In this document: piece by piece, positions 2,291-60,714 of the stretch
How the letters are laid out: every line of letters starts with the position of its first letter
How positions within the stretch are numbered: the stretch's first letter is position 1
Assembly (NCBI GenBank): GCA_934232895.1
Contig: CAKQGH010000005.1
Span: 1,422 to 65,421, forward strand
Direction of reading: 5' to 3'
DNA length: 64,000 nucleotides
DNA from: an uncultured Alphaproteobacteria bacterium
GTDB taxonomy: Bacteria; Pseudomonadota; Alphaproteobacteria; Rs-D84
Translations under genes and position numbers: made by a program
Notes under the pieces: model-generated
Seen by the model: only the letters and a program-made list of their open reading frames with translations
Databases searched by the model: none
Told to the model about the DNA's origin: nothing

Positions 2291-3823
2291 ATGATTTTTA
2301 AGACTGCGATTAAATTAAACATTTCGATTTTGTGTTTGGCGGCGTTTTGTGCATCGGCACATGCGGCGGGCATTAATTATGGCGTACAAGACGCATGGGA
2401 CAACCCAACCGCAAACATGGCATCGGGCAGTACCAAACCCGGATATGCCCAATTGTCATGGACCGCAGGCAGTGTTTTACCAATTAAATTGCGCAATGGA
2501 ATGGTGACCATGGTGTCATTGCCAAATGGCGAACAAATTTCCGACGCCGTTATCGGGAACCAGGGTCTGTTCACGATTGAGGCGAACCAAGGCGACCGCA
2601 CAATGATTATCAGCCCGGAATCCAGCAACCAGGGTTCGGACACAAACCTGATTGTGACGGGAAAATCTGGCAATAAATACATATTCTATTTGCGCAGTGA
2701 ACCATCTAATTCCAGTGAAATTACATATTCCCAGGTTGATGTTGTTTTGGATGGAAACGCAACATTGCCAAACGCCACGGGGGCGACAACCGCAACCGGT
2801 GGTGCATCGTCTATATTCAAAAAATCGGCCCCGGCATCGACCGTTGTTGGCGCCGATGGCGAAGATTATGGTTGGATTAAATCGATGAAGATTGATCCAT
2901 CGGAATTCCGTTTTGATTTGGATATATTTGTTCCAAACCCCGATGATTATGTGATTGCGCCCGAACGCGTATGGCGCGACAAAATATTCACATACATTGA
3001 TTTTGGGGACAAGGTCATCGCCATGACCCAGCGCCCGGTCGTATCATTATTGGTCGAGGGCGGCGAATCCCCGGTTGGTTTCCGCACCGATGGCGAAGAT
3101 GGTCGCCTGTTGATTGTCGAGGCCGTGGGCGATATGGTTCTGCGCAGCGGTCAACGCATTGTGTGCATTAAAAAGCGCGCCAAACCGTTCTTGATTGCCG
3201 ACACGGCGTCCGTCATGGCATTGGCCGAGGCGAATGTTGCCCAATCGATGATGTCGGGCCAATCGTTGAACAATATGGCATATACGATGGATCAAAATGC
3301 CATAAATGCCGCGGGTATAAATTACACCGGCACACCGGTCTATGTTGGCAATAACGACGCAATCAGTGGCACGGGATATTACATGCCGGCGGGCACAATG
3401 GCGACCACCGTTGCAACAACCGTGTCGGGCACAACATCGGGCGTGAATATGATGCCAACCGAACGTTTAACGGCGGGTTCGTATTTACCACAATCAAACA
3501 TTCCATTGATTACCAGCAACCAATCCGGCGTTGCGGTTGAATTAAAATCTGACACATCGGTCAAGGCATTGGATGAATACTGGACCGGTCTGTTGGCGAA
3601 ATTCAGTGGCGACGATGGCCAGGGATTATTGACCCCATATAAAGATATGGTGTTCTTTGCGGTTGACGAACAGGGTGTTGGCGAACTGGGCGCGACATCG
3701 CGTGCGGCGCGCCTGTACCGTTTGCGCATTGGACCTATGTCTGATATTGATACGGCGCAAAAATTGTGCGACCAGTTGCTGAAATTCAGCGGGGCCAGTT
3801 GCAGCGTTGTTCGGATTCAATAA
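2291..3823 (+). CDS. virB9: VirB9/CagX/TrbG-like T4SS outer-membrane core protein with a C-terminal SPOR-like domain
   Basis: The start is ATG 2291 and the signal peptide ends ASAHAAG. The N-domain reads VTMVSLPNGEQISDAVIGNQGLFTIE...TNLIVTGKSGNKYIFYL. The C-domain reads ERVWRDKIFTYIDFGD...VSLLVEGGESPVGFR...LRSGQRIVCIKK. An extra tail ends LYRLRIGPMSDIDTAQKLCDQLLKFSGASCSVV. Confidence 0.85.
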   Translation: MIFKTAIKLNISILCLAAFCASAHAAGINYGVQDAWDNPTANMASGSTKPGYAQLSWTAGSVLPIKLRNGMVTMVSLPNGEQISDAVIGNQGLFTIEANQGDRTMIISPESSNQGSDTNLIVTGKSGNKYIFYLRSEPSNSSEITYSQVDVVLDGNATLPNATGATTATGGASSIFKKSAPASTVVGADGEDYGWIKSMKIDPSEFRFDLDIFVPNPDDYVIAPERVWRDKIFTYIDFGDKVIAMTQRPVVSLLVEGGESPVGFRTDGEDGRLLIVEAVGDMVLRSGQRIVCIKKRAKPFLIADTASVMALAEANVAQSMMSGQSLNNMAYTMDQNAINAAGINYTGTPVYVGNNDAISGTGYYMPAGTMATTVATTVSGTTSGVNMMPTERLTAGSYLPQSNIPLITSNQSGVAVELKSDTSVKALDEYWTGLLAKFSGDDGQGLLTPYKDMVFFAVDEQGVGELGATSRAARLYRLRIGPMSDIDTAQKLCDQLLKFSGASCSVVRIQ

Positions 3824-3842: not shown

Positions 3843-6344
3843 ATGAATCGCATAAAAAAACAAATTGTAAATTTGCGTAAATCCACACCGCAAAGTGTCC
3901 AGTGGTTGTTGCTGGGCGCGGCGTTTATTGTGGTGCTGATTTTAATGACCATGTTGATTGGTGGCCGCGGGAACAAGCAAATTGCGACCGACGATGATGC
4001 GCCAATCGCATTGCGCACGGTTCCGGAAACGGAATCTGTGAATTGGGGGAATATTCGCGTTGGTACCACCGAAAAAGACAGCATAAAAATATTTGCATCT
4101 GCCCCGGCCAAGGTTATCAAGGTGCGTCTGAACCAGGATGTGCCGGGTTTTCGTGTTTCTGAAACATGTGGTCGTATGGCGCAAATAAACGAAAACACAT
4201 CGTGCACGATATCAATGGAATATGCGCCAACCGCGGCGGCCGATGTAATAACAACCGCATTGTTTATTGATTGGCGCGGCGCGGATCAACCCGACAAAAT
4301 GCAGAAAACCGATAAAATCGTATTGGTGTTGGGCGCCACCGCCCCGGAACAATCAAAAACCACAACGACCGGTTCCAATGCCGATACCACCAAGGCCCCC
4401 AGCGCGGCCGCCACAAAAAGCGAGCCCGCCCCCGCCCCATTTATTGACACACCCGCACCGACCAAGGCCGATATAAAACAAGAAATTGCAACAATTGCCC
4501 CATCGGATCCATTTACCGATGATGACGATGACTATGTCGCGCCGGCGCCCGCGAAAAAGGCCGAGCCCGCGGTTGTTGAACGCACCAATACCAAAAAGAC
4601 CGAGGCATGTTCCGCGTTTGCATTCCCGGGATATAATTCAACCGGCACACAAATCGGGTGGATAAAGCCCGAAAATGGCGCGTACTATTTTCATCCGTTT
4701 TCGGATAAAGAATGCAAAAATCCAACCGGGACATATAATCCCGACACCGGTTTAATTACCGATATAAAAAATGCCGGTAAAAAAATTGGAACCGATGCCG
4801 AACATATTGGGTACACCGCAATTGCATCAAATGGTGCGTTGCCGCAATTATCAAACCCGGTCCAGAAAAATAAAAACCGCGCATATCAATTGACCACCGA
4901 TGAATTGATGGCAATGGATGGCGCCATGTCTGGGGCCGAGGACGCATCGCGTTTCCGCGCCGGCATTACCATGAACATAAAACCAGATGACACGGTGTTT
5001 GGCACCAGTGGTATGGACGCGGTATTTTCATCCGACCCATTTGACCGTACGTTTGTGTTGCGCCAGTATAAACCAATTCCGGCCACCATTGTGTCCGAGG
5101 TTCGTGCCGACCCATCGTTATATGATGGAAAAGAAAAAAGTTTACCGGTACGCGCGACGGTTGACCGAAATGTATATTCCGACAATGGTCGCACAGTTGT
5201 TATACCGGCGGGCACATTGATGTTGGGATATGTCACGGGTGATATTCCGGGGCCATATAAAACAATTGGTCGTATGGATATTCGTTGGTACCAATTTATA
5301 TTGCCCAGTGGCGTTGAATTCAATTTTGATGGTGGTGGCGACACCGACCCATTTTCGGGCGATTCCCAGGGGCGCGTTGGTGTTCCCGGATACGGCAGTA
5401 CCGATTATGTGGAACAATTTGTTATGCCATTGCTGACATCGCTGGTGCCGGCGGCGGTGAATATGATTGCGCCAATATCGGACCGTTTTGTAAACCAAAT
5501 TGATTTGGATAATAACACCGTTGTTCAATCGGGTACCGTGCGTTCATCGGAATTGGCGAAAAATGAAATCATTACCGCATGGAACCAGGTTGCCCAGAAA
5601 TTAGTTGTAGATATGATGGACAACACCGTTCCGCCGTTTTCAATTGCGGCCGGCACACGCATAACCGTGTTTCCACCAACCGATTTGGTTTTAACCTGTG
5701 GCAGTGACGCCAGTAAAAAATGTTCTGTATCGACATTGGAACAAACCACCGGTTATGCCAATTTGAATCGTCGCAATCAGCGCGCTGATTGGAAACACAG
5801 TGGCGAGGTCGATTATGCCGATGGTTCATGGGTTGGCCAGGTTCGTTCATTTAACCTGAGCAGTGATTACTGCAAACAGGACAAAGATGGTCTGTGGGAT
5901 GTGAACGAGGACAACATCAGCGGCCTCTATTCCGAAGGGTATGATTACAGAACGATATTGATGTATTGCAAATCGCTGAATTACCAGGCGAAAAACAATG
6001 CGCGCCAGGATGCGGTGTACAAAAACCAACAGGAACAGTTCAAATCGACATACGAGGCCAGCGGCAGCGCCGGCGGCGTGTCGGGGCAAACTGTGTCGGG
6101 CAATCAGACATATAACACTGAAATATTGGGACTGAAATATAACGATGATGGTTCAATTCAAAATCCATTTGAATCATCGGCCAAAGGCGAAGAACAAGCC
6201 GCCCAGGCCATCATTACGTGCGAGGATGGCACCGCCCCAGATGCAAACGGATGCTGTACCGGTGAAATCTACACCGACATGGGCGAAGCCGGATTCAATT
6301 GTTGTCCCGAAACGGGTGGCGATTGTTTCCCGCCGATATTGTAA
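3843..6344 (+). CDS. virB10: VirB10/TrbI-like T4SS protein, unusually long (833 aa)
   Basis: The N-terminal TM helix is WLLLGAAFIVVLILMTMLIGG, followed by a Pro/Ala/Thr-rich linker. The TrbI-type core reads PATIVSEVRADP...LPVRATVDRNVYSDNGRTVVIPAGTLMLGYV...RMDIRWYQFILPSGVEF...DSQGRVGVPGY...AAGTRITVF. Extra N- and C-terminal modules are present. Confidence 0.85.
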   Translation: MNRIKKQIVNLRKSTPQSVQWLLLGAAFIVVLILMTMLIGGRGNKQIATDDDAPIALRTVPETESVNWGNIRVGTTEKDSIKIFASAPAKVIKVRLNQDVPGFRVSETCGRMAQINENTSCTISMEYAPTAAADVITTALFIDWRGADQPDKMQKTDKIVLVLGATAPEQSKTTTTGSNADTTKAPSAAATKSEPAPAPFIDTPAPTKADIKQEIATIAPSDPFTDDDDDYVAPAPAKKAEPAVVERTNTKKTEACSAFAFPGYNSTGTQIGWIKPENGAYYFHPFSDKECKNPTGTYNPDTGLITDIKNAGKKIGTDAEHIGYTAIASNGALPQLSNPVQKNKNRAYQLTTDELMAMDGAMSGAEDASRFRAGITMNIKPDDTVFGTSGMDAVFSSDPFDRTFVLRQYKPIPATIVSEVRADPSLYDGKEKSLPVRATVDRNVYSDNGRTVVIPAGTLMLGYVTGDIPGPYKTIGRMDIRWYQFILPSGVEFNFDGGGDTDPFSGDSQGRVGVPGYGSTDYVEQFVMPLLTSLVPAAVNMIAPISDRFVNQIDLDNNTVVQSGTVRSSELAKNEIITAWNQVAQKLVVDMMDNTVPPFSIAAGTRITVFPPTDLVLTCGSDASKKCSVSTLEQTTGYANLNRRNQRADWKHSGEVDYADGSWVGQVRSFNLSSDYCKQDKDGLWDVNEDNISGLYSEGYDYRTILMYCKSLNYQAKNNARQDAVYKNQQEQFKSTYEASGSAGGVSGQTVSGNQTYNTEILGLKYNDDGSIQNPFESSAKGEEQAAQAIITCEDGTAPDANGCCTGEIYTDMGEAGFNCCPETGGDCFPPIL

Positions 6345-6384
6345 TTGGCCGCCTGTGAATTATATATTCGGCGTAATGAAATTA

Positions 6385-6410
6385 AACGCGCAAATTATTG
6401 CGCGTTTTTT
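6385..6410 (+). terminator. Rho-independent terminator after virB10
   Basis: A 9-bp stem pairs aacgcgcaa with ttgcgcgtt around loop atta, followed by a T-run. Confidence 0.7.
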
Positions 6411-6573: not shown

Positions 6574-6930
6574 ATGACATCACAACAACATATACACATC
6601 GAATATGCACCTGAAAAATTCCAGAACGCCGAACAATTGTGGTTTTGGTTTTTGTATTCCAAATCGGTGCAAAACGGGTTTATGCACGGGGCCACGCACG
6701 CCACGCGACGTTGCGCGGAATTGTTGGATGTGGAAATGCTGATAACAAAATTGTATCTGTGTGGGAAATTGACCGATGAACAATTGAATGTAATGAAAGA
6801 ATTTGGTGACCGCCGCCGCGCACCACATCACTATATTTGGGCGGAAAATCGCGCGGCAGATTTGTGGCGACGCGCAATGGAAACAATCGATGTCGCCGCA
6901 CGCGCACGCGGTTGGTTGGTAAATGAATAA
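6574..6930 (+). CDS. Hypothetical protein (118 aa)
   Basis: A strong RBS (aaggagga) lies 6-7 nt upstream of the ATG. The composition is plausibly coding. I recognise no family. Confidence 0.6.
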   Translation: MTSQQHIHIEYAPEKFQNAEQLWFWFLYSKSVQNGFMHGATHATRRCAELLDVEMLITKLYLCGKLTDEQLNVMKEFGDRRRAPHHYIWAENRAADLWRRAMETIDVAARARGWLVNE

Positions 6931-7454: not shown

Positions 7455-8390
7455 CTAGTCGCTTCCGTACAGGAACTCGCCGGTGCCGGAATTGCCATAG
7501 AATTTTTGTTCAACTATGTCCCACATACCGTTTTGTGGCACCGTATAATCACCGATTTTTAACCCGCATGGCACCGGCACAAAATGATGCACCAGGGTAT
7601 CATCCTCGTATATTTTTACATCGTATACATACATAAAATCATTTGCGGAATATGGTACAACCCCATTAAATGTACTGTTGATGCGTCGATACCCAAATAA
7701 AACCATAGCGGCATCGTGCGAATTTTGAGGCGTTTGCCCCGACAGGCTGCGCGTAGTGGCGCCGTATTTGAATACTTTATTTTTTGCATCCAACACAACG
7801 GTTTGTCGGGTCGTTTTTTGCGTCAAACCGATACCGACCGAGACAACCGGACAATTTGCCCCCATTATACACAACCACGGAAATAACAGAGTTGCCTGGT
7901 TCGCACTGCCGCCAAAATTAATTTCGTATGACGAATTTGTAATTGCACTGGAAACGCCAAACAGACAAACATTAACACCCGATGGATGAAATACATCATT
8001 ACTGAACCGTACATCCATTTCTGTGCGCGTGGTTGTGGTTGGTATGTATTCGGTATCAATATATTGCGTGCCGGTTGATGCCAGGTATACTTCACCATTT
8101 ACGCCCGTCAATTTACCGTCGGATATATTGTAAAATTCGGCATCAGAATAAGCATAGTAATCGATGTCGCCCTGTTTTATATGCAGGTATTTATCGCTGG
8201 CTGCGTTTATTGTGCGGCGACATTGCGTCAGGTTCCCGTACCACATTTCATCGTCTATTTTTACATTCAACGCCGGTGTGGTGTTTTTTGTTTCGTATAA
8301 TTGCACCGTGTCATCGCCAACGTGCAATACGCGCGCATGCGCCGCAACGCACGCAAACAAACCAATAAAGATTAAACAACGCCGCCACAT
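7455..8390 (-). CDS. Secreted hypothetical protein (311 aa)
   Basis: It has an N-terminal signal peptide (LIFIGLFACVAAHA) and a beta-rich composition. The C-terminal pattern is GTQYIDTEYIP ... FYGNSGTGEFLYG. The family is not recognised with certainty. Confidence 0.75.
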   Translation of the reverse strand: MWRRCLIFIGLFACVAAHARVLHVGDDTVQLYETKNTTPALNVKIDDEMWYGNLTQCRRTINAASDKYLHIKQGDIDYYAYSDAEFYNISDGKLTGVNGEVYLASTGTQYIDTEYIPTTTTRTEMDVRFSNDVFHPSGVNVCLFGVSSAITNSSYEINFGGSANQATLLFPWLCIMGANCPVVSVGIGLTQKTTRQTVVLDAKNKVFKYGATTRSLSGQTPQNSHDAAMVLFGYRRINSTFNGVVPYSANDFMYVYDVKIYEDDTLVHHFVPVPCGLKIGDYTVPQNGMWDIVEQKFYGNSGTGEFLYGSD

Positions 8391-14003: not shown

Positions 14004-15152
14004 TCAATGAAATACATAGCAATCAATGCCCGCCGATTTTGCGCGCGCCCGAATGTCGGCGGCGGTCGCATCGGACAATTTATTTACACGCACGCGGTAC
14101 ATACCGTTGTCTGATTGTTCAATAACCGCGTTCAATCCCAATTTGTTTTTTACATTTGAAACCTGGTGCGATGCGGCATCGCGCGATGAAAATGCACCAA
14201 ATTGAACGCCCGCCGTGCCGCCCGATGTTGATGCCGTATATTTTGGCGCCGCGGCCGATGTTGCGGCATTATACGCCGCACTGATTGTGGGCGCCGCGGT
14301 TGCAACAACCGGTGTTGTTGGTGTTTGTTTTTTTACCATTGGCGCATTTTTCGCCGACATTTCAAACCCACGGTTTAATAAACGCGTTGCGGTATCGGCA
14401 CGCACATCTTTGGATTCAGCGCCCAACACAACCGCCATTAAATGCGTGTCGCCCCGCGCCGCGGTTGCGACCAATGAATATTTTGATTTATTTGTAAAAC
14501 CGGTTTTCATACCATCGCACCCCGGATATGTGGCCAGCAACCGATTCCCATTGGTGTATGTTTTGCCATTATATGTCCAGGTTTTAATACCAAAATATTT
14601 CCAATATTGCGGGAAATGTTTATATACCGCCATAGACAGCAACGCAATATCACGTGCGGTCGACAAATGGTCATCATTCGGCAAGCCCGACGAATTTTCA
14701 AAATTCGTTTGCGACAATCCGATTTCCGTTGCAACGCGCGTCATCAAATCGGCAAAGTTGCCTTCCTTGCCACCCTTCAAATTTTCGGCCAGAACGCGAG
14801 CTACATCATTCGCACTCATCACCGTGACGGCCTTTATCGCATCTTCGACGGTAATTTTACTGCCCGCAGGCAGTCCCAATTTCACGGGCGATGCCGCCGC
14901 CGCAACATTTGATACAATCAAATAATCATCCAAATGCAACCGGCCATGTTCCAGCGCATCAAATGTTAAATACACCGTCATAATTTTGGTCAATGATGCC
15001 GGGTAATTTAATTCATTTGCGTTTTCAGAATATAACACGCGTCCCGTATCCATATTGGCAATCAACGCCGCACGATACGGCGCCGCAAACGCCGCACCAC
15101 ACATAAACACACAACATAAAAATGAAAATATTGCCCTGGTCATTATGAACAA
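14004..15152 (-). CDS. dacA: D-alanyl-D-alanine carboxypeptidase (PBP5/6 class) with a C-terminal SPOR domain
   Basis: It has a signal peptide and the SxxK motif in PASLTKIMT. The C-terminus reads GVQFGAFSSRDAA...MYRVRVNKLSDATAADIRARAKSAGIDCYV. Confidence 0.9.
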   Translation of the reverse strand: MFIMTRAIFSFLCCVFMCGAAFAAPYRAALIANMDTGRVLYSENANELNYPASLTKIMTVYLTFDALEHGRLHLDDYLIVSNVAAAASPVKLGLPAGSKITVEDAIKAVTVMSANDVARVLAENLKGGKEGNFADLMTRVATEIGLSQTNFENSSGLPNDDHLSTARDIALLSMAVYKHFPQYWKYFGIKTWTYNGKTYTNGNRLLATYPGCDGMKTGFTNKSKYSLVATAARGDTHLMAVVLGAESKDVRADTATRLLNRGFEMSAKNAPMVKKQTPTTPVVATAAPTISAAYNAATSAAAPKYTASTSGGTAGVQFGAFSSRDAASHQVSNVKNKLGLNAVIEQSDNGMYRVRVNKLSDATAADIRARAKSAGIDCYVFH

Positions 15153-18890: not shown

Positions 18891-20894
18891 TTGCGACGCA
18901 ACGAAATAAATTCCTATAATTTCATTATGCGTGGGTTGTTGGATAACCAATTTGAAAATTTATTTTTGTGGGTGCCGTTTTTAATGGCGTTTGGTGCCGC
19001 GCTGTATTTTTCCATTGGGACCGAGCCCCACATTCCATACCCATTTATATTCGCCGCATTATTCGGCGTTGTGGCGGGCGCGCGACGTGCGCCAATACTG
19101 GTGCGGGCATGCGCATTGTTTGCATTTGGATTTATGTATGCCATGGCGTTCACGCATTTTGTGGCAACACCACAGATGCCACGCAATGTACATGATGCGT
19201 CTATTGTTGGCACAATTGAAAACATTGATTACACCGATACAAAAACGCGCGTTGTTATGCGCATAGATGGTCGGGACATAAATGCGGGCGACGCACATAC
19301 CACAATTCGCGCATCGATTATGCAAAATGATGCGCCGTTGCACATTGGCGATACGGTGCGCGCAACCGCAAATCTGAACCGGCCAAATCCACCCTATGCA
19401 CCTGGGGCGTTTGACTATGCGCGATGGGCATATTTTAATCATCTGACCGCGACCGGATTTATTACCGAATATGAAATATTGTCGCATAATGATGCCAACA
19501 ACATAAACACACTGCGCGAATATTTGCACGGTGCGGCAAATTCTTTTTTATCCGACGCGTTGGTGTTGGGATATAAAAACATTGTCCCACGCGAAGAAAA
19601 CGCAATTTGGACCGCCACCGGCGCGGGGCATGTTTGGTCAATCAGTGGATTTCACATGACATTGGTGTCCGGATGGTTGTTTGCAATATTTTACAGCATA
19701 TTCCGATTGATTGCGCCAATCACACGCCGCGTACCCGCGCGGGTGCCCGCGACCGTATGCGCATGGTTTGGGTTGTTGTTTTATCTGTTTCTGTCGGGAA
19801 TTGATGTTGCAACAATTCGCGCGTTTTTAATGGCAACATTGGTATTTGCGGCGTTTTTATGTGGCCGCAATGCAATTTCTATGCGCAATGTGTGCATTGC
19901 AATGATGATTATATTTCTGATAAATCCACATTATGTAATGCAAGCCGGATTTCAGTTATCATTTGCCGCAATATTTGGCCTGATTTGGTTTTGGGGCACG
20001 GTTAAACCACGCATTCCACAAAACAAGATATTAAAAATATTGTATACGGCAACCATGACATCAATTATTGCAACGGTGTTCACAGCCCCGTTTGTAATAT
20101 CACATTTTGGTGCGTTTCCGATATACAGTCTGATTGGCAATTTGGTATTACTGCCCATATTTTCAATTGCAATTATGCCACTGGTTATCGTTGGGACAAT
20201 TACCGCACCAATCGGGTGGCATTGGCCACTGGACGCGGGCAATGCCGTTTATAATTTTGCATTGCAAATTGCGACACACATAACCGATTTACCATTTGCC
20301 AGTATGAATATGCCATATATGTCGAACACGGCAATTGTACTGTTCATATTGGCATTTGCATCATTGATGTTCGTGCGGCCATTACGGGTAAAAATAAATT
20401 ACATTTTGTTCGCGGCGCTTGCCGCATTTGGGGTGATAAATGTAATATGCACACCGCGCCCGGTGTTCTATGCAACATACGATCATGAATTGGTTGGATT
20501 TGTTGAAAACGGCAAATTAGAATTTAACAAGGGACGCGCATCAAATCACTATTTTGCATTTGATACATGGAAACAATTAAATGGCGAACCCACCGGCACA
20601 AAAAACACGCGCCGCAAACACGACCATGGTCTGTACATATTTCACGCACCCAAATTTACATTGGCATACATTCAGAAATTTGTACCACTGTCGAAACACT
20701 TGGTTGATTTATGCCGTGACGACAATATTGACTATATCGTGTCGTATTTCAAAATAGACAGTCCGCAATGCAATCACAAAATATTAAACGATGGATTCGT
20801 AATCTATGGTTCGGGCCACGTTATTTATTCGCCGGCGCATCGCCCATGGCATAATCCGCCGAAACAAAATATAACCCCGCCGCCGGCGCCGTAG
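18891..20894 (+). CDS. comEC: ComEC/Rec2 family competence protein
   Basis: It is polytopic and carries GAGHVWSISGFHMTLVSGW. The start is uncertain, with an alternative Met at 18927. The 3' end overlaps convergent truA by 74 nt. Confidence 0.85.
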   Translation: MRRNEINSYNFIMRGLLDNQFENLFLWVPFLMAFGAALYFSIGTEPHIPYPFIFAALFGVVAGARRAPILVRACALFAFGFMYAMAFTHFVATPQMPRNVHDASIVGTIENIDYTDTKTRVVMRIDGRDINAGDAHTTIRASIMQNDAPLHIGDTVRATANLNRPNPPYAPGAFDYARWAYFNHLTATGFITEYEILSHNDANNINTLREYLHGAANSFLSDALVLGYKNIVPREENAIWTATGAGHVWSISGFHMTLVSGWLFAIFYSIFRLIAPITRRVPARVPATVCAWFGLLFYLFLSGIDVATIRAFLMATLVFAAFLCGRNAISMRNVCIAMMIIFLINPHYVMQAGFQLSFAAIFGLIWFWGTVKPRIPQNKILKILYTATMTSIIATVFTAPFVISHFGAFPIYSLIGNLVLLPIFSIAIMPLVIVGTITAPIGWHWPLDAGNAVYNFALQIATHITDLPFASMNMPYMSNTAIVLFILAFASLMFVRPLRVKINYILFAALAAFGVINVICTPRPVFYATYDHELVGFVENGKLEFNKGRASNHYFAFDTWKQLNGEPTGTKNTRRKHDHGLYIFHAPKFTLAYIQKFVPLSKHLVDLCRDDNIDYIVSYFKIDSPQCNHKILNDGFVIYGSGHVIYSPAHRPWHNPPKQNITPPPAP

Positions 20895-31886: not shown

Positions 31887-32009
31887 TCCCTGACTTATAC
31901 AAGTCGGGGAGCTGTCTGTTATACAACAGGGTTTTACCCGAAAGCGACAGAATCATTGATAATTTGATTGCTAACTCCCCGACCGCCTGTCTTTGCTGGG
32001 CGGTTTTTT
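31887..32009 (+). promoter_or_regulatory. Structured leader element L3 with terminator, upstream of the lipoprotein pair
   Basis: The segments are TCCCTGAC (A), GTCGGGGAG (B) and CTCCCCGAC (C, a perfect complement of B). They are followed by ACCGCC-tgtctttgct-GGCGGT and a T-run ending 22 nt before the ATG. The layout matches L1 and L2. Confidence 0.4.
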
Positions 32010-32031
32010 CATTATAAAAAAGGATCCAGGA

Positions 32032-33315
32032 ATGAAAAAAATAACAATTTTGACATCAATCCTAGCATTGGCCGCATGTGGCGGCGGTTCTGGCGGGAAA
32101 GCGCCTGATATACAAATACCAAAAGAATTACAAACAAGTGCAATCAATAGTGTCACTATTGATCAAGCTGCCGCAAATAAGTCAATGGTAAATTTTGTAG
32201 GAAACCGCATTCCTGAGGCATACACCGCCGATGCCACAGACGAAGAAAAATTGACCATCGCAACAAATCTACTAAATAATATGCACACTACATTACAGGC
32301 TTTATCCGATCTGCAGGTCTCTGGAGACGCGGACGCATTGCGCCAGTATATAGCCAATCATCAAACAGATGTAAAAAATGCACTTAGCCTGTATTTTGCA
32401 GATTTTACACCATCAAGCGATCCAGACCATTTTTATATGAATAACTACAACCGGATTTCATCGGATAAATTGAACAACTTTGAAAAAAAGAATGGTTTTG
32501 TGTCCGGCACACTTGGACATAACGACATGGACTTTTACAACACAAGTGACCAACCAGTAAAAATACAATTTAGCAACGGAAAAATCACTGGTATAGATTT
32601 TGATAACGGTCTATTCAAACAACTAAGCCCAGATGGCACCATACGAATAGAAGAAGATTACACAAAAAATCCAGATTATGACCCGACCACAGATCCAGTA
32701 TATGGTGCGTTTACCGGCAAGGCCACATTATTGGGGAACACGGTAGGGCTGCAATATTCTGATTTTGGCTACGTTCTGTCCAATGGCACAACAACATATT
32801 CAGATGGACATACAGAACAAAATAATGATGGCCATATATTTTTTGGCGGATATATACCACATGAAATAAAGGCCACAGAAAGCGGTACAATGACATTCAA
32901 TGGGACCGCCATAGCAGTTATAAATTCGCATACATACGACAGCGACAGTGGCGTTGACAATTTTGACACAATGACATCCACAGTAAACGATGCAAAATTA
33001 ACCGTCAATAATGGGAATGAAGTATTAACCGCAAATTTCTCAAAAGCACAAAATCCATGGTATGACGTGATTATAAGCAAAGACAGTGCAACACTTGTAA
33101 ATTCAGACAGCGAAATTCCTGTTGAATATCAGGTAAAAAATACCACTGGTTCAACCAGCCCAGAAAATGATTTTTTGCGCGCTAAATATTATGGGGACAA
33201 TGGCCAAATATCAGAAGCGGTTGCAGGTTCACATTTTTATACCACTGGCGCACTTTCTGACGAACGCATAACGCATGAAATTGATGCCGACATTGGGTTC
33301 GGCGGAAAATTATAA
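32032..33315 (+). CDS. Surface lipoprotein with a TbpB/fHbp-like C-terminal beta-barrel pattern (427 aa)
   Basis: The lipobox is LALAAC followed by GGGSGG. C-terminal patterns are YSDFGYV, MTFNGTAIAV, AKLTVNNGNEVLTANF and AKYYGDNGQISEAVAGSHFY, ending IGFGGKL. Confidence 0.85.
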   Translation: MKKITILTSILALAACGGGSGGKAPDIQIPKELQTSAINSVTIDQAAANKSMVNFVGNRIPEAYTADATDEEKLTIATNLLNNMHTTLQALSDLQVSGDADALRQYIANHQTDVKNALSLYFADFTPSSDPDHFYMNNYNRISSDKLNNFEKKNGFVSGTLGHNDMDFYNTSDQPVKIQFSNGKITGIDFDNGLFKQLSPDGTIRIEEDYTKNPDYDPTTDPVYGAFTGKATLLGNTVGLQYSDFGYVLSNGTTTYSDGHTEQNNDGHIFFGGYIPHEIKATESGTMTFNGTAIAVINSHTYDSDSGVDNFDTMTSTVNDAKLTVNNGNEVLTANFSKAQNPWYDVIISKDSATLVNSDSEIPVEYQVKNTTGSTSPENDFLRAKYYGDNGQISEAVAGSHFYTTGALSDERITHEIDADIGFGGKL

Positions 33316-33329
33316 AAAAGGAGCAAATA

Positions 33330-34523
33330 ATGAAAAAAATAACAATTTTGACATCAATATTGGCATTGGCTGCATGTGGTGGGGTTTCTGGCGGGAACGG
33401 GCCAATTCCCCCATCAACAACAATTTCAGAACCAGAAACCCCAAATATAACAGTGCCAGCAGGGGCGCAAAACAGTAATCGGGCAATTACTTCTATGAAA
33501 TCCGAAATATTAGTTCCGAATAATTCCGGCACACACAGTATGACAGGTCGTTCATCAACCACACATATAAACGGTAAAGACTATACATCATACAGATTGG
33601 ATGATGTCAAATTTGAACAGTCTGGTTTTGACGGCGATTCTACAGATGAAACATATCTGAAATTTGGGCTGGACGAAAACGGAAAAATCATAAGATTGGA
33701 TGTGTTTAATGGGGATGAATCAAGAACACAAACCATCACTCGCGATTCAGACGATGCAAAAACTTTTTCTGAAACGTCCAAAAAATATACAATCAATTAC
33801 GGAGATAATGCCTCATACGAGATAAATACATCTATGGATACAAATCTGGATGATGACCTGGAATTTATATTAACGAAAGAAAACAATCCAGATAAAGACG
33901 CAATCCTGGCGGCCTATAAAGACAAAAAGTACACAACAGCAGATGTAAAAATAACTACAACATCAGACATGTATGGAAAAACATTATCCAAACCACTAAG
34001 TTATGCGGATTTTGGTTATGTCACACAAGTTTATGGAAACGACACAAACGGTGTTCATACAGTAATAACTGGTGGATACGAAATCAAAGCAATCGCCGAA
34101 GAAAATTTTGCATCAACAGATATGACTTTTACGGGCACGGCCATCGGGGCAATATCTGCCGAGACCAGCGACGGATACGATTCAAAACGAATAAAAACAG
34201 AAAATGGCACGGCAACTTTAACGTTCCAGGACGGCAAAGAAACTCTGACCATGCCATTTGACGATTACTACACGGTCACAGCCACCCGTGCACGTGGGGA
34301 ATCAGACCCGACACTGGAATTCACGGATTATAAAGGAACCGATGATAAATTTAAGTTTAACGAAACAACCCTAAACAACCGAGAAAATACCAGACTTCAC
34401 TTCCGTACGGGGTACTATGGCAACAATAACAATCCAACTGAAGCCATCGGTACTATATCCGTAGAACAAAACAACAACGGGGCACGCATTGGCTTTGATG
34501 CCGCATTTGGTGGCACAAGATAA
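33330..34523 (+). CDS. Paralogous surface lipoprotein with a TbpB/fHbp-like C-terminal pattern (397 aa)
   Basis: The first 18 residues (MKKITILTSILALAACGG) are identical to the upstream gene. Patterns are YADFGYV, MTFTGTAIGA, ATLTFQDGKETLTMPF and GYYGNNNNPTEAIGTISV, ending AAFGGTR. Confidence 0.85.
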   Translation: MKKITILTSILALAACGGVSGGNGPIPPSTTISEPETPNITVPAGAQNSNRAITSMKSEILVPNNSGTHSMTGRSSTTHINGKDYTSYRLDDVKFEQSGFDGDSTDETYLKFGLDENGKIIRLDVFNGDESRTQTITRDSDDAKTFSETSKKYTINYGDNASYEINTSMDTNLDDDLEFILTKENNPDKDAILAAYKDKKYTTADVKITTTSDMYGKTLSKPLSYADFGYVTQVYGNDTNGVHTVITGGYEIKAIAEENFASTDMTFTGTAIGAISAETSDGYDSKRIKTENGTATLTFQDGKETLTMPFDDYYTVTATRARGESDPTLEFTDYKGTDDKFKFNETTLNNRENTRLHFRTGYYGNNNNPTEAIGTISVEQNNNGARIGFDAAFGGTR

Positions 34524-55426: not shown

Positions 55427-56716
55427 TTATTTTTTTATCGCGGCGTACCATTTTTTCAGGTTTCCCCATACAACATCGATGTTCTTTTTCGTGGTTTCAT
55501 AGAACGATGTTGGTATGGTTACATTTGCAAACAAAGTCTTGACCAGTGCGGGTATCATCGTCATAAACATGGCGATAAATATGCCCATCAATATGATTGT
55601 AATCAGACTGTCGTTGCGCATCATCAGCCCGTCCATCAAAATATGCGAATCGTTTTGTGCCAATGCCGCCGCCAACCGATTCGCACCGTTCCAACGCCCA
55701 AATATGGCATTCAAAAACATAACTGCGAATGTGATAAACACGCCAACCATTGCAATTCCCGCGGTACCACGCACAACATCGTCAATAATAGCCTTGATAT
55801 TTTTTCCACCATTTGGGAATATCGGCCACCCGGCGAACAACCACGACAGCAACATAAACGGAATCATTATCAAATCCATGGACAATTTGATAAATATTTC
55901 CAAAAAATACAGCGGTATTGGCAACAGCGCCGCAAAAAACAACACCAGCACCAACAGCCCCGCGAAAAATATTGGCACATTCGGGAACACTGGGACATCC
56001 CACATAATTTTGTGCATATATTGTTCGTTAAACGCCATATTTAACATGGTCCATCCAACGGTCATACCCAATCCGGTCATTTGGTGAACATTGCCAACCT
56101 CGCACGCCAAGTTATGGCGCAGGCGCGGCGAATATGCCCCAGCAGCGGCGGCGGTCGCATCAACCGATACCGGATCCGCAATTGCGGTTGCAACCACACA
56201 ATTTGAAAACGCATCATTACCCGCAACCACACGATTCAGCGACAGTCCAATATTAAAAACAGGCTCAATAACAATCGACGACAGCATTCGCGGCAATGGC
56301 ACCGCCAACAATGCGCACACCACGCCCAATTTTATAATTTGCGTACCGAACATACCAGCCAATGACCATGGGGTATCAACCTTGGCATTCATAAAACCGT
56401 TTAATAATTTCCAAGCGAACCAAACCGCAGTCAATCCCGCTGCGAATGGAATTATTACCGTGCCAATTGCATGATATATGCCGGGCAAAATATTTGACAT
56501 AGTTTGCATAATGTCTGCAAACATCTGGCACGACCAACACGATGAAAAGAAATTCATTGCATCCGCCATATTCGTTGGTGCCGCCGTGCGATATATTGAA
56601 AAACCCGCAATCACTCCCAGACCCGCAATACCGCCAACAACCAATGGCGCAACGGCCCCAGCCGAAAAAGGCAGGAATGATAAAAAAATCATCCAAAAAT
56701 TTTTTAGCTTGTTCAT
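55427..56716 (-). CDS. Polytopic membrane protein, paralog 1 (VirB6/TrbL-like by architecture)
   Basis: The start at MNKLKNFW (56716) avoids overlap with the divergent gene. It has about 8 hydrophobic helices, an N-proximal CWSC motif, a loop Cys pair, and a C-terminal tail IDVVWGNLKKWYAAIKK shared with paralogs 2 and 5. The functional call is an inference. Confidence 0.6.
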   Translation of the reverse strand: MNKLKNFWMIFLSFLPFSAGAVAPLVVGGIAGLGVIAGFSIYRTAAPTNMADAMNFFSSCWSCQMFADIMQTMSNILPGIYHAIGTVIIPFAAGLTAVWFAWKLLNGFMNAKVDTPWSLAGMFGTQIIKLGVVCALLAVPLPRMLSSIVIEPVFNIGLSLNRVVAGNDAFSNCVVATAIADPVSVDATAAAAGAYSPRLRHNLACEVGNVHQMTGLGMTVGWTMLNMAFNEQYMHKIMWDVPVFPNVPIFFAGLLVLVLFFAALLPIPLYFLEIFIKLSMDLIMIPFMLLSWLFAGWPIFPNGGKNIKAIIDDVVRGTAGIAMVGVFITFAVMFLNAIFGRWNGANRLAAALAQNDSHILMDGLMMRNDSLITIILMGIFIAMFMTMIPALVKTLFANVTIPTSFYETTKKNIDVVWGNLKKWYAAIKK

Positions 56717-56725
56717 CGCTTTAAG

Positions 56726-56755
56726 TATATCACATTTTGTCCCAAATGTGATATA
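56726..56755. promoter_or_regulatory. Perfect 12-bp palindrome in the divergent promoter region
   Basis: tatatcacattt and aaatgtgatata flank a tgtccc spacer. The right arm overlaps TGaTATAAT (56749-56757), an extended -10 facing paralog 2. Confidence 0.8.
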
Positions 56756-56787
56756 ATTGAACAGATAAATTAAATCGCAGTCAGAGA

Positions 56788-58089
56788 ATGTATTTCGCAC
56801 CACGCAAATTTTTACACCGCATCGCACGTGCCACGGCCATGTTGGCGGCGGCACTGTGCCTGGTAGGCGCGCCATCGGCGGCATTTGCACAGTATGAAAT
56901 TGTCGATGCGTTTAACCTGGCGCCGTTTGTACCGATGGTGCTTGATGCACTGATGGCGGTCGCAACCGGCGGTTACGAATTTTTTGTTGGGTCCGGGGAC
57001 GGCATTATTTATGTTTTGGTGTGGGGCTTCCTGGCGGTGTCGGTTGCGCTGTATTTGGTGAAATTATATTTCCCAAAAATATGGGTTTCATTTTTTGGTT
57101 TTTCGGGTGGTGGCGATATGGCGGGCGGCAAGGTCGGCGGTCAAACCATTGTTATGAATGTTCTGCATCCCGGGTTTCGCGCATTGATTGCGGCCGTGTT
57201 GTTATTACAAATCAGACCCGTATTTTTAACACAATGGCTGGTAAATCCATTTTTACAATTTGGCGCATTATATACGCACGCAATTACCGAAACAGTGAAT
57301 GCAACCGGCACCGCCACACCGCGAGTGGAATGTCCCGAGGCGATTGTGCAAAAGGCATGGATAAGTAAATCATCGTGCGAGTTTCTGGTTCAACCGGTAT
57401 CGGATATTTCATACGCCAATAACCGCGTTATCAAAAGCGGATTTGAATTTATCAATCGGGGGCTGCGCGGGCTGGTCACATTGGTGCCACATGGGGGCGA
57501 AGATTTCTTGAACATAATCACCGGTATATTGTTGGTATCTGCATTTGTTGGGTCCAACCTGTTTATGGCGTTGTTGATTATCCAGGGTATATTTAATTTT
57601 GGCATGGCGTTGGTTCTGTACCCGTTCCAAGTTTTAACTTGGGTTGCCAAACCAAAAAATCCAGACAAATGGTTTGATATACTGCCGGCGTTTTCTGGAA
57701 TTACAAAATCATTACAGCAATTGATTATCACCATGATTGCATGCGCGTTTATACTGTGCATAAATGTGGCGGTGATAAAATCGCTGTTCAGTTGGAACAG
57801 TTCCGTGTTTGTTGTTGCGGCGGGCGGCACGGCCACAAGCAATGTTCCACAAATGTCTGGGGCAATGGGATTTGGCGCACATTCAATATTGTGGTTGTCG
57901 TCAATAATGACATTCTATTTGATGTTTCGCATATTTGAATTGACGCGTAAACAATTGGATTCCTATGTCGGCAGTGGTATGGACGATTTGTACAAGAAAG
58001 CAACCGGCGACACCAAACGCGTTTGGGCAAACACCAAAGATTGGGGTAAAAAAATCGGCAAAGCAATTGGATGGTTGGGCAAGAAATGA
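56788..58089 (+). CDS. Polytopic membrane protein, paralog 2 (VirB6/TrbL-like by architecture)
   Basis: It has a signal-like N-terminus (MLAAALCLVGAPSAAFA), multiple TM helices, and the loop Cys pair VECPEA...SSCEF. The tail reads TKRVWANTKDWGKKIGKAI. Confidence 0.6.
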   Translation: MYFAPRKFLHRIARATAMLAAALCLVGAPSAAFAQYEIVDAFNLAPFVPMVLDALMAVATGGYEFFVGSGDGIIYVLVWGFLAVSVALYLVKLYFPKIWVSFFGFSGGGDMAGGKVGGQTIVMNVLHPGFRALIAAVLLLQIRPVFLTQWLVNPFLQFGALYTHAITETVNATGTATPRVECPEAIVQKAWISKSSCEFLVQPVSDISYANNRVIKSGFEFINRGLRGLVTLVPHGGEDFLNIITGILLVSAFVGSNLFMALLIIQGIFNFGMALVLYPFQVLTWVAKPKNPDKWFDILPAFSGITKSLQQLIITMIACAFILCINVAVIKSLFSWNSSVFVVAAGGTATSNVPQMSGAMGFGAHSILWLSSIMTFYLMFRIFELTRKQLDSYVGSGMDDLYKKATGDTKRVWANTKDWGKKIGKAIGWLGKK

Positions 58090-59282
58090 ATAACTGGATG
58101 AATTCTTTGGTTGATTCTTCGGTTCAGTGTTGGGGCTGTGGCGTGTTTGACCGACTGTTTCAAATTGTGTCGGTGGCGGCCGCATCGGTGTACAAACAAT
58201 TTGCAATAATTTGTGCGATTATATTTTGCGTGCTGTTTGCGTTCTTTGCCGTAAATGCCGTGTGGCAAAATATCAAGGGCGGCGTCGGCGACCCGTGGTA
58301 TAAAAAATCAATTCGTCCCGTGTTTATAAATGCTTTGGTTGCAATGGCATTTTTGGGCATGGGCGTTATGTTGCCACGCGCCATGACACAAATTACATTT
58401 GAACCCACGGCGCAAATTGCATTGATATATACGCAAAGTATGTTACAGACGAATTCCGACACCGTAAATGCCAAGGTGACATATCAACCCACAAAAATGG
58501 ATGACAACGGATTTTTCCGCCCGCAATTGCGCGATACAATTATATTGCTGATGAAAACAACCATTACACAATTTCAATCGTATATGAAACTGGGCATTGC
58601 GATGATGGACAACGCATTTTCATGGCGCGCAATTTTGGACATTGGCACATTGATTAAACATATAATTATGTTCGCCATTGGATTGTATCTGTTTTATGGA
58701 TTTTTCAAATTGTTCGTGCGTTTTTGTTTCTATTTCGCCGATATTATCATAGCAATGACATTCTTTGCATTTTTCTTTCCACTGTCGTTGGTTATGATGT
58801 CGTTTCGTGGTGCATCCGATATTCCAAAATGGATGTCGGGCATTGGCGCAAAATTAGGCACCGGGCAATTCAAAAATTTGATAAACGCAATCATTGCATT
58901 GGCGGCGGCGGTTTTAACATATACCGTTATGATGGTGGTTATTGCAAAATTCTTTTCCGCACCTGGTGCGTCGGCCGCCGAATTGATGCAAAACATTTTG
59001 TCGGGCAATGTATTTGCGGGCGACCTGTCCGATGCAAATGTTGCAACATTGACCATTACCAGCAGTGTCGTTTTGGTATATGTATTAAATTTCATATACG
59101 GCCAAATACCCAAGGTCACAAAAATGGTTTTGTCGGCGTTTGATGTTGATGCCGACCATAAACTGGGCGACCAATTGGCCGATGACGCATTGGGCGTATC
59201 CAAGAAAATAATAGACGCATTGGCAACCACCGGAAAAACTATTCTGGCGGGCGGCGAAACAAAATCAGGTGGCACAAAATGA
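58086..59282 (+). CDS. Polytopic membrane protein, paralog 3
   Basis: An ATGA overlap joins it to the paralog 2 stop. It has an N-proximal CWGC motif followed by FDRLF, and multiple TM helices. Confidence 0.6.
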   Translation: MNNWMNSLVDSSVQCWGCGVFDRLFQIVSVAAASVYKQFAIICAIIFCVLFAFFAVNAVWQNIKGGVGDPWYKKSIRPVFINALVAMAFLGMGVMLPRAMTQITFEPTAQIALIYTQSMLQTNSDTVNAKVTYQPTKMDDNGFFRPQLRDTIILLMKTTITQFQSYMKLGIAMMDNAFSWRAILDIGTLIKHIIMFAIGLYLFYGFFKLFVRFCFYFADIIIAMTFFAFFFPLSLVMMSFRGASDIPKWMSGIGAKLGTGQFKNLINAIIALAAAVLTYTVMMVVIAKFFSAPGASAAELMQNILSGNVFAGDLSDANVATLTITSSVVLVYVLNFIYGQIPKVTKMVLSAFDVDADHKLGDQLADDALGVSKKIIDALATTGKTILAGGETKSGGTK

Positions 59283-60712
59283 TGAAAGCAAAATTGATTT
59301 CCATTGCCATCAAATTTGTTATGGGTGCAATCGCACTGGGGTTGGGAATTTGGTATTTATCATCGTCAATCAGTGGCGCCGCATTGACATACACCAGTAT
59401 GGATAATTTTATGACCGCAATTGGCGCGGGGGGTGGCGATATTGCCGGGGCAAACGGATGCTTTATGTGCAAATATGTTGCCGAATTATTTGGTGTTATT
59501 GGGCGCGCTGCGGAAATGTTCTGGGTGGCGATGTTGGACAACATTTGGATATTGCTGGCGGTTGGGTTTGGAATATTTCTGTTTATATATACCGCGCAAT
59601 ATATTTTTGATGCCGCTAAAAAGACCGCCGCATTGGACGCCAAAGAAAAAAAATTGGAATTCGCCGGATGGTTCGACAAAGTATGGCGCCAGGCCGCCCG
59701 CATAATGTTGGTGGGCGCGGTACTAGGCACATTGGGTATGGGCGGCACGGGCGCGTTGCGCGCAATATCAAACATCACAATCACGCCTGTATTATATGTT
59801 GGTGCCGAATTATCCATGGCGGCATCGGGCGTCAATGACGCCAGCAAATGCGTGGCGGCAAATGTTGAAACCGACGATTTATTAAATCCAATACTGCAAC
59901 CATTTATGTGCACCATGGGCAATTTGAACAGCGTTATGCTGGCGGGCGCCGCAGGCGGATTTGCAATGATGAATTATGCGTGGCTGGGCATGGGCGGTGG
60001 CGCATTTACATGGATTGCGGGACTGGCGTTGGTTATAATGTTTTTAATTATTGGATTCGATTTATTTTTCCAGGTATTATCTGTCATATTCAAACTGGTG
60101 TTTTTAATTGTGTTTATGCCGTTGCTGATTGCGGCCACCGCATTCGAAGGCACATGGAAATTGGCCAGTGGTGTTGTGGCGAATGCGGTCAGTATGCTGG
60201 TTAAATCGGCCGTACGCATTGTGGCAATTTCACTGAAAATTTTAATTATCTATGCAACGGTATCTTTTGCCGCCGACGAATTTTTCCCCGGCCCCCACGA
60301 TGGGTACAGTGCGATATTGCCACCATTGATGGGGCGCACCGCACAAAACCCAGGCGCCCAAACATTATCGGTAATGAATGTATTTGCAACATGTGAACGC
60401 GTTGCATTGTCCGACGGCAAAATGGATGCGGCGAAATTCAAGGACTGTTTCACGGCCCAGCGCAATATGGTTGAACGCAAATATCCCGGCGCATTTGATT
60501 TTATGGGTGACGGATTTGAATTCTTGATAATGATGATATTTATGTTCGTGTTATATTTCCATATTGTGTCGCCACGCGTTGATGCAATTTTGGGCAAGGA
60601 TTCCAAAGAGCAATTTGATTTCGGCGCCTGGACCCGCGATCTGGGTAAAAAGATTTGGTCTGCGCCACAACAAATATTTGATGCCATATCTAAATCAATG
60701 GGGAACAAATAG
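59279..60712 (+). CDS. Polytopic membrane protein, paralog 4
   Basis: An ATGA overlap joins it to the paralog 3 stop. It has the CFMC motif followed by YVAELF, and the loop Cys pair SKCVAA...FMCTMG. Confidence 0.6.
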   Translation: MMKAKLISIAIKFVMGAIALGLGIWYLSSSISGAALTYTSMDNFMTAIGAGGGDIAGANGCFMCKYVAELFGVIGRAAEMFWVAMLDNIWILLAVGFGIFLFIYTAQYIFDAAKKTAALDAKEKKLEFAGWFDKVWRQAARIMLVGAVLGTLGMGGTGALRAISNITITPVLYVGAELSMAASGVNDASKCVAANVETDDLLNPILQPFMCTMGNLNSVMLAGAAGGFAMMNYAWLGMGGGAFTWIAGLALVIMFLIIGFDLFFQVLSVIFKLVFLIVFMPLLIAATAFEGTWKLASGVVANAVSMLVKSAVRIVAISLKILIIYATVSFAADEFFPGPHDGYSAILPPLMGRTAQNPGAQTLSVMNVFATCERVALSDGKMDAAKFKDCFTAQRNMVERKYPGAFDFMGDGFEFLIMMIFMFVLYFHIVSPRVDAILGKDSKEQFDFGAWTRDLGKKIWSAPQQIFDAISKSMGNK

Positions 60713-60714
60713 TA

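Follow-up and report, generated by a model that had tools for sequence, protein, structure and literature searches.

A VirB9 outer-membrane core subunit with a long C-terminal tail and a predicted SPOR-type terminal domain in Rs-D84 Alphaproteobacteria

The virB8-virB9-virB10 operon and the layout of VirB9

The 64,000-nucleotide stretch of DNA analysed here (hereafter the window; contig CAKQGH010000005.1 of assembly GCA_934232895.1, from an uncultured alphaproteobacterium of the order Rs-D84) contains an operon for VirB8, VirB9 and VirB10 of a type IV secretion system, in which VirB9 is extended at its C-terminus. The tail comprises residues 297-510 (214 residues, nucleotides 3179-3820), in agreement with an earlier note on this DNA, made from the sequence alone, that had placed it at 3182-3823. 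The virB9 reading frame ends at 3823 (+ strand) and could begin at a GTG at 2252 or at an ATG at 2291. The start is most plausibly the ATG, which has a Shine-Dalgarno-like motif (GAAGGA) ~8 nucleotides upstream and would give a product of 510 residues. The distance between the virB8 stop and this start is 28 nucleotides, and the virB8-virB9-virB10 order, with short intergenic gaps in the window, is kept in ~80 loci. The features of the operon are given below, together with the predicted local distance difference test (pLDDT) values of the AlphaFold models and the template modelling (TM) scores, normalised to the target, of the Foldseek comparisons.

1507-2262, + strand: virB8, first gene of the three-gene operon (Pfam VirB8, PF04335, 45.1 bits against a threshold of 23.2)
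2291-3823, + strand: virB9 open reading frame (510 residues and stop), encoding core, tether and SPOR-like domain (Pfam, Foldseek)
2291-2368, + strand: putative Sec signal peptide, residues 1-26, read from the sequence, with a putative cleavage between ...CASAHA and AG; in the model a helix at residues 11-21 is followed by low pLDDT
2444-2749, + strand: VirB9 N-terminal beta-sandwich, residues ~52-153 (pLDDT 85-90; matches the TrwF N-terminal domain of the R388 I-layer, 7o3t_B, TM 0.78)
2762-2884, + strand: disordered inter-domain linker, residues ~158-198 (pLDDT <50, lower conservation)
2888-3178, + strand: VirB9 C-terminal domain, residues ~200-296, the most conserved part (pLDDT 80-88; 94-100% identity in 120 homologs)
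3179-3265, + strand: genus-conserved segment AKPFLIADTASVMALAEANVAQSMMSGQS, residues 297-325 (98% identity within Enterousia; pLDDT ~30 in the monomer model)
3266-3523, + strand: variable low-complexity tether, residues 326-411 (39-73% identity, pLDDT ~30)
3527-3820, + strand: SPOR-like domain, residues 413-510, ~98 residues (Pfam SPOR above threshold, AlphaFold topology, Foldseek); elements beta1 413-421, alpha1 424-438, beta2 454-459, beta3 475-483, alpha2 486-500 and beta4 505-509; key residues Glu417, Asp421, Trp431, Arg477, Arg479, Cys493 and Cys504
3843-6344, + strand: virB10 (833 residues), last gene of the operon (Pfam TrbI, PF03743, 58.6 bits against a threshold of 35)
6384-6407, + strand: terminator-like hairpin after virB10, a 10-bp stem followed by a T run (consensus scan only)

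That the gene encodes a true VirB9, a subunit of the outer-membrane core of a type IV secretion system, follows from Pfam CagX, from Foldseek matches to TrwF and Xanthomonas citri VirB9 and from its place in the virB8-virB9-virB10 operon. The Pfam CagX/VirB9 family (PF03524) matched residues 54-295 with 75 bits (threshold 34.2), which puts the end of the core at ...RIVCIKKR, residue 296. The NCBIfam equivalog model for P-type conjugative VirB9 (TIGR02781) was not reached, the score being 51.1 bits against a cut-off of 217.7, and since this lies far under the cut-off the protein is not that plasmid equivalog but a divergent VirB9. The best PDB matches of the full-length AlphaFold model were TrwF/VirB9 of R388 (8rt6_B, E=1.3e-16) and X. 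citri VirB9 (6gyb_B, E=2.2e-16), with further Foldseek matches to DotH, TraO and CagX, the matched chains having 223-258 residues and no such tail. The VirB9 C-terminal domain resembled the TraO/VirB9 C-terminal domains 2ofq and 2n01 (TM 0.69-0.80).

The query therefore shares with canonical VirB9/TrbG proteins (TrwF of R388, TraO of pKM101 and X. citri VirB9) the two beta-sandwich core domains, the Pfam family and the virB8-virB9-virB10 gene order. The solved chains of these proteins (223-246 residues), however, stop at the C-terminal domain, whereas the query adds the 214-residue tail with its SPOR-like end. The remark in the earlier note that the tail is not a standard VirB9 feature thus holds when TrwF and Xanthomonas VirB9 are taken as the standard, but the tail is not special to this genome (see below).

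A disordered tether of ~115 residues lies between the core and the terminal domain. In the full-length AlphaFold model pLDDT is ~30 across residues 299-411, and the Gly/Thr/Ala stretch described in the earlier note is real, coinciding with the least conserved part of the protein (residues ~340-398, with 39-51% identity to the query as against 90-100% in the flanks among 120 homologs). Across 325 homologs, 42 to 249 residues separate the core from the domain, and G, A, S, N, T and P are abundant among them; given this variation in length and this composition, the spacer behaves like a flexible tether. When the profile of the segment directly behind the core (residues 297-325) was compared with 150 representatives, the only confident matches were in the close relatives P0121 and P0147, together with a 9-residue partial match in the truncated P0122. 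This segment may fold only inside the assembled complex.

The SPOR-like terminal domain and its distribution

The terminal block, GVAVELKSD...LYRLRIGP...C...C..VVRIQ, begins at nucleotide 3527 (residue 413) as had been claimed, and structural modelling confirmed a predicted SPOR-type fold at the end of the tail. The AlphaFold model of residues 399-510 has a beta-alpha-beta-beta-alpha-beta topology with a pLDDT of 77.6, and a folded terminal domain (residues 413-509) is also present in the full-length model. Foldseek placed the RlpA SPOR structures 6i09 and 6i05 (with and without denuded glycan) at ranks 1 and 2 of the PDB with a probability of 1.00 and TM scores of 0.75 and 0.74, followed at rank 3 by the DedD SPOR (6ztg), while the lower ranks were generic ferredoxin-like proteins of lower probability. 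An independently built full-length model again retrieved the RlpA SPOR. The Pfam SPOR family (PF05036, threshold 21) scored 26.8 bits (E=6.4e-6) when the tail was searched by itself and 23.3 bits with the full protein. In an alignment of 46 diverse tails with 29-90% identity to the query, 45 matched SPOR at E<=0.01 (best E=3.4e-9) and no other family was matched. The SPOR-like ending proposed in the earlier note was accordingly borne out by Pfam, by these 45 tails and by two AlphaFold models matching the RlpA and DedD SPOR domains.

Several observations nevertheless weigh against this assignment, or against the domain working as an ordinary SPOR domain. The Pfam match of the query spans only model positions 36-76, i.e. 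the second half, and profile-profile comparison with a canonical SPOR set (CwlC, the DacA SPOR of the window and FtsN), which favours the assignment at 90.5% probability, gave a local alignment to the second half of the domain only. The sequence similarity of the first half to canonical SPOR is weak. A profile search of the tail against PDB sequences gave a marginal match to the CwlC SPOR (1x60, E~1), the Foldseek E-values, at 1e-3, are modest, and many proteins have a ferredoxin-like fold. Since the sequence-profile search of the PDB was marginal, it is the fold evidence that carries the SPOR case. Sub-threshold SPOR matches in relatives span nearly the whole model, at positions 3-76 in P0126 and from 4/5 to 75/76 in three more distant tails.

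The remaining points of this kind concern the residues expected to contact the ligand. In RlpA most glycan contacts are made via backbone atoms of beta1 and the beta1-alpha1 loop, and a basic patch (R302, R309 and R311) holds the lactyl carboxylate of N-acetylmuramic acid (MurNAc) (Alcorlo et al. 2019, PMC6895207). The sole highly conserved ligand-contacting side chain is Q270, which is key for denuded glycan, its amide forming hydrogen bonds with the MurNAc lactyl carboxylate and the acetyl oxygen of N-acetylglucosamine; its equivalents are FtsN Q251 and DamX Q351, at the Gln-preferred model position 8, and position 12 prefers Phe (RlpA F274), which stacks on the glycan (PMC6895207). In the VirB9 tail, position 8 is Glu417 and not Gln (E in 300, D in 9 and Q in 1 of 345 tails), and position 12 is Asp421 and not Phe, Asp being present in 120/120 Enterousia tails and in 107 of 119 distant Rs-D84-type tails. 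The register of the two positions was taken from a low-confidence global profile alignment, from the distance to the start of helix 1 and from the Pfam hit starts in four relatives, where the start coordinates lend support if the alignment starts are ungapped. Arguing by analogy from the description of the RlpA complex only, a carboxylate at position 8 could not donate the hydrogen bonds of the Gln amide and would face the lactyl carboxylate. Since Gln is replaced by Glu and Phe by Asp, it is probable that the VirB9 tail does not bind its ligand exactly as RlpA or FtsN bind denuded glycan.

The basic patch of SPOR (RlpA R309 and R311, FtsN R285) is kept as Arg477 and Arg479, the equivalence being drawn from sequence alignment. 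Both lie on beta3 in the LYRLRIGP motif, Arg477 being Arg or His in relatives and Arg479 nearly invariant. Across the 345 tails Trp431 in alpha1 is nearly invariant, Cys493 is found in all 345 and Cys504 in 340. The invariant Cys pair suggests a periplasmic disulfide. In FtsN, disulfide formation was correlated with wall binding (PMC6895207), but the FtsN pair (C252/C312) and that of the VirB9 tail (in alpha2 and before beta4) occupy different positions. The VirB9 tails appear to have a signature of their own, in which beta1 carries E-x-G/K-S/T-D, alpha1 an invariant Trp and beta3 R/H-L-R-x-G-P, with the invariant Cys pair in addition. With the SPOR domains of RlpA, DedD, FtsN, DamX and CwlC the tail has in common the predicted beta-alpha-beta-beta-alpha-beta fold and a y-R-l-R-i-G-P on beta3 with basic residues, and its C-terminal position behind a disordered low-complexity linker is the usual one for SPOR (PMC6895207). 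It differs from them in having Glu for Gln at position 8, Asp for Phe at position 12 and a longer beta2-beta3 loop, and whereas canonical SPOR domains are partnered with division or wall-remodelling proteins, the partner here is a secretion-system subunit.

A point of comparison from the same window, outside the secretion system, is a DacA-type carboxypeptidase, which the earlier note had rightly described as ending in the same domain type.

14004-15152, - strand: DacA-type D,D-carboxypeptidase with a canonical C-terminal SPOR at about nucleotides 14013-14222 (PF00768 and PF05036, the latter with E=5.1e-10)

The DacA SPOR matched the CwlC SPOR structure 1x60 at E=8.6e-6 and contains GVQFGAF with the canonical Gln. 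Since it keeps GVQFGAF and has only a short motif in common with the VirB9 tail, the tail domain is, judged by sequence, a distinct and old SPOR subfamily. A recent copy of the DacA SPOR onto VirB9 was ruled out, the two domains having just a 15-residue motif in common.

The survey of homologs proposed in the earlier note found the same tail in close and distant relatives. A search of ~5.8 billion proteins gave 120 homolog clusters (486-537 residues, 76-99% identity) whose coverage of the query is 95-100% in nearly all cases, and a second search seeded with distant members gave 119 proteins of 514-662 residues, with the tail domain in 119/119. Among 1.84 billion representative sequences, the VirB9 core is paired with the tail in ~25 clusters (at 50% identity), down to ~37% identity, and many other VirB9 proteins among 150 representatives are tail-free. 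In GTDB species genomes of 'Candidatus Enterousia' 206 stretches encode a relative, and 80 loci were kept; all 80 have one uninterrupted frame to residue 510, one of them lying in a circular 958-kb genome. An assembly or sequencing frameshift that joined virB9 to a separate SPOR gene was rejected, and has next to no probability, since the frame is intact in these 80 independent loci as well as in the 120 close clusters and the 119 distant homologs. Both of the grounds on which the earlier note had allowed that the fusion could fall, a lack of SPOR similarity and a frameshift, were thus examined, and the fusion stood.

The terminal domain is under strong purifying selection. The fusion itself is selected, since it is intact in the 80 loci, in 119/119 distant homologs and in a cultured Sphingomonas, and since VirB9 is better conserved than VirB8 or VirB10 across the compared loci. 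Going by the homologs retrieved, the fusion is family-wide in the order Rs-D84 and extends to other Alphaproteobacteria, reaching relatives of ~25% identity. In VirB9 proteins that are 23-32% identical to the query, the two-Cys pattern of the C-terminal domain is retained, and the Pfam signal is weak or absent. More distant tails such as those of P0160, P0167, P0170 and P0171 gave no Pfam match or a sub-threshold one and keep the two-Cys C-terminal pattern; we treat them as candidate relatives of the SPOR-like tail.

The distant group with 23-32% identity includes the 567-residue tailed VirB9 of the cultured Sphingomonas sp. 3-13AW. Since its locus encodes VirB5, VirB8, VirB9, VirB10 and VirB11 by Pfam, and the sizes of upstream open reading frames fit VirB2, VirB3, VirB4 and VirB6, it can be read as a complete virB operon. 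On its contig (L084, 1-21704) the operon has a DnaB-like helicase gene on one side and a JetABC (Wadjet) defence cluster on the other, and the locus is suggestive of a mobile island. A distant Rs-D84-type locus (L081, 8177-21644) has the order VirB8, a 62-residue open reading frame, VirB8, VirB9-SPOR, a 1305-residue protein, a 1746-residue protein and VirB11, the VirB10-like similarity sitting in the 1746-residue protein. We take this order, with its duplicated VirB8, to resemble the rvh layout of Rickettsiales. Two contigs with an Enterousia-type virB9 locus (L007 and L076, with 88% and 76% identity) were deposited as 'Bacteroides fragilis isolate ... cleanbin' and 'uncultured Muribaculaceae bacterium', respectively, and are probably mis-binned or mislabelled.

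Proposed role of the tail

VirB9 rings in solved type IVA core complexes reach 16 copies. A 14-fold symmetry is known for the type IVA core complex (PMC9302130). If the present system is built alike, the VirB9 C-terminal domain would lie under the outer membrane in ~14-16 copies per core complex, and once assembled the machine would have SPOR-like modules hanging on their tethers in a ring beneath the outer membrane, at the height of the peptidoglycan. Such a ring is predicted to bind the wall and, as a built-in anchor, would hold the core complex in place in the sacculus or set its position there. Binding to peptidoglycan, the number of copies in this machine and the glycan that is recognised are inferred; with that understood, anchoring or positioning of the core complex at the wall is the most likely role of the tail and, on balance, a probable one.

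The principle of anchoring has a precedent in DotK and Dis1 of the Dot/Icm system, which carry OmpA-like domains (PMC9302130). In Legionella, DotK and Dis1 (Lpg0657) hold peptidoglycan-binding-type domains at the periphery of the outer-membrane complex, at one copy per asymmetric unit (PMC9302130), a placement like that proposed here. They are, however, separate OmpA-like-domain proteins of a type IVB system (DotK being an outer-membrane lipoprotein), whereas the VirB9 module has a predicted SPOR fold and is covalently fused by a long tether in a type IVA-like system. Other trans-envelope machines also have a peptidoglycan-binding anchoring domain, as in the TagL/TssL extensions of type VI secretion, GspA/ExeA of type II secretion, MotB of the flagellum and TsaP of the type IV pilus; these modules have other folds (OmpA-like, PF01471, LysM) and sit on other subunits.

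The canonical denuded glycan is a doubtful ligand of the tail. Were the tail to bind amidase-denuded glycan in the canonical SPOR manner, it would gather the secretion machines at division septa and new poles. The SPOR fold and the Pfam membership would favour such targeting, as would the retention of Arg477 and Arg479 as equivalents of RlpA R309 and R311, and in RlpA backbone contacts dominate (PMC6895207), so that binding could survive changes of side chain. An unchanged binding mode is, however, made less likely by the Glu that is invariant at the Gln position and by the Asp at the Phe position, and since the DacA SPOR of the same genome has the canonical Gln, the difference looks selected and not the outcome of drift. 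We therefore consider canonical targeting unlikely. A possibility that we put forward tentatively is that the tails form a new SPOR subfamily in which the acidic change at the Gln position has switched the specificity from ordinary denuded glycan to a wall feature of different chemistry or to a non-wall ligand. De-N-acetylated, positively charged sugars or a specific remodelling intermediate are possible altered targets, and a switch of this kind, if true, would tie the building of a type IV machine to a condition of the wall that has not so far been connected with secretion systems.

The SPOR-like fold could also have been re-purposed without wall binding, so as to bind a protein of the machine (the extended VirB10, VirB8 or a VirB7-like lipoprotein) or another envelope component, and would then act as an assembly or gating module. 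The loss of the canonical ligand side chains is consistent with this, as is the gain of a new subfamily signature with invariant Trp431, Cys493 and Cys504. Furthermore, residues 297-325 are disordered in the monomer model despite 98% conservation, which hints at folding upon contact with a partner, and the VirB10 of the operon has unusual extra regions. On the other hand, a tether that is long and varies in length (42-249 residues) would be of more use in reaching something spread out, like the sacculus, than in docking to a protein surface at a set place, and SPOR alone is found by Pfam in the tail. Re-purposing away from the wall is, in our judgement, quite unlikely, and wall anchoring is the reading that we retain.

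A literature search returned no paper pairing 'VirB9' and 'SPOR domain', and the titles and abstracts by which most of the related literature was judged did not contain this fusion. In precomputed Pfam annotations some homologs already bear both domains, so that databases show the architecture, though without interpretation. It joins two known parts on a known principle. The passage of minimal type IVA systems through the peptidoglycan, and their fixing in it, are poorly defined, and structurally placed wall-binding modules have so far been limited to the expanded Dot/Icm system; if VirB9 brings along a SPOR-like domain on a tether, each machine would have ~14-16 points of contact with the wall. 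The cultivable Sphingomonas carrier would provide a tractable system for the study of wall anchoring or spatial targeting of a type IV machine, while the consistent Gln-to-Glu change offers a natural test of the determinants of SPOR ligand specificity. Adding somewhat to the interest of the fusion are its conservation over a whole order of gut bacteria with reduced genomes, a residue signature of its own and a carrier that can be cultivated.

Organism and neighbouring genes

'Candidatus Enterousia' is an uncultured genus of gut Alphaproteobacteria in the order Rs-D84, with genomes of ~0.75-1.0 Mb that lack the tricarboxylic acid cycle, respiration and standard nutrient transporters (PMC12306168). 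The reduced-genome gut Alphaproteobacteria of Rs-D84 probably depend on partner cells (PMC12306168). The window contains the peptidoglycan synthesis genes murG, ftsW and mraY and a class A penicillin-binding protein gene, which indicates that the organism makes peptidoglycan.

The virB8-virB9-virB10 genes form a chromosomal operon that is vertically inherited. The order nusG-secE-tRNA-Trp-virB8-virB9-virB10-orf118-...-yidC is kept in ~76-80 of the 80 loci. The product of orf118 (6574-6930, + strand), which lies 3' of virB10 in 70 of 84 loci, matches no known family, and orf311 (7455-8390, - strand), a variable insertion between the operon and yidC, was seen only in the nearest relative (L001). 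The virB genes clustered in the 64-kb window are virB8, virB9 and virB10 only. In systems of the rvh type (Rickettsiales vir homolog) the genes lie in scattered clusters, with VirB8, VirB9, VirB6 and VirB4 duplicated.

In VirB10 (3843-6344, + strand) the TrbI domain covers only residues 407-617 of the 833. Residues ~60-140 gave a sub-threshold match to an ASH/choice-of-anchor-D-like beta-sandwich, and a C-terminal extension of ~215 residues has the Cys-rich motif CEDGTAPDANGCCTGEIYTDMGEAGFNCCPETGGDCFPPIL at its end. The NCBIfam models for VirB10 and ComB10 gave the VirB10 product similar scores, both under the cut-off, and one source labels relatives 'ComB9'. A gene for a ComEC-type competence channel (PF03772 and DUF4131; 18891-20894, + strand) lies 15 kb from the operon, which bears on whether the system is ComB-like and serves DNA uptake. 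DNA uptake, effector delivery and conjugation are all candidate functions of the machine.

Further along, positions 55427-62016 of the window hold five neighbouring open reading frames of 403-487 residues, a tandem array of four (+ strand) and a single one (- strand). They show weak paralogy to one another, and their N-termini are hydrophobic. Their identification as VirB6 paralogs was unsupported, since Pfam gave nothing for them even at E<=1. A tandem pair of paralogous predicted lipoproteins (31993-34523, + strand), sharing a LALAACGG lipobox and 27% identity, matched no Pfam family.

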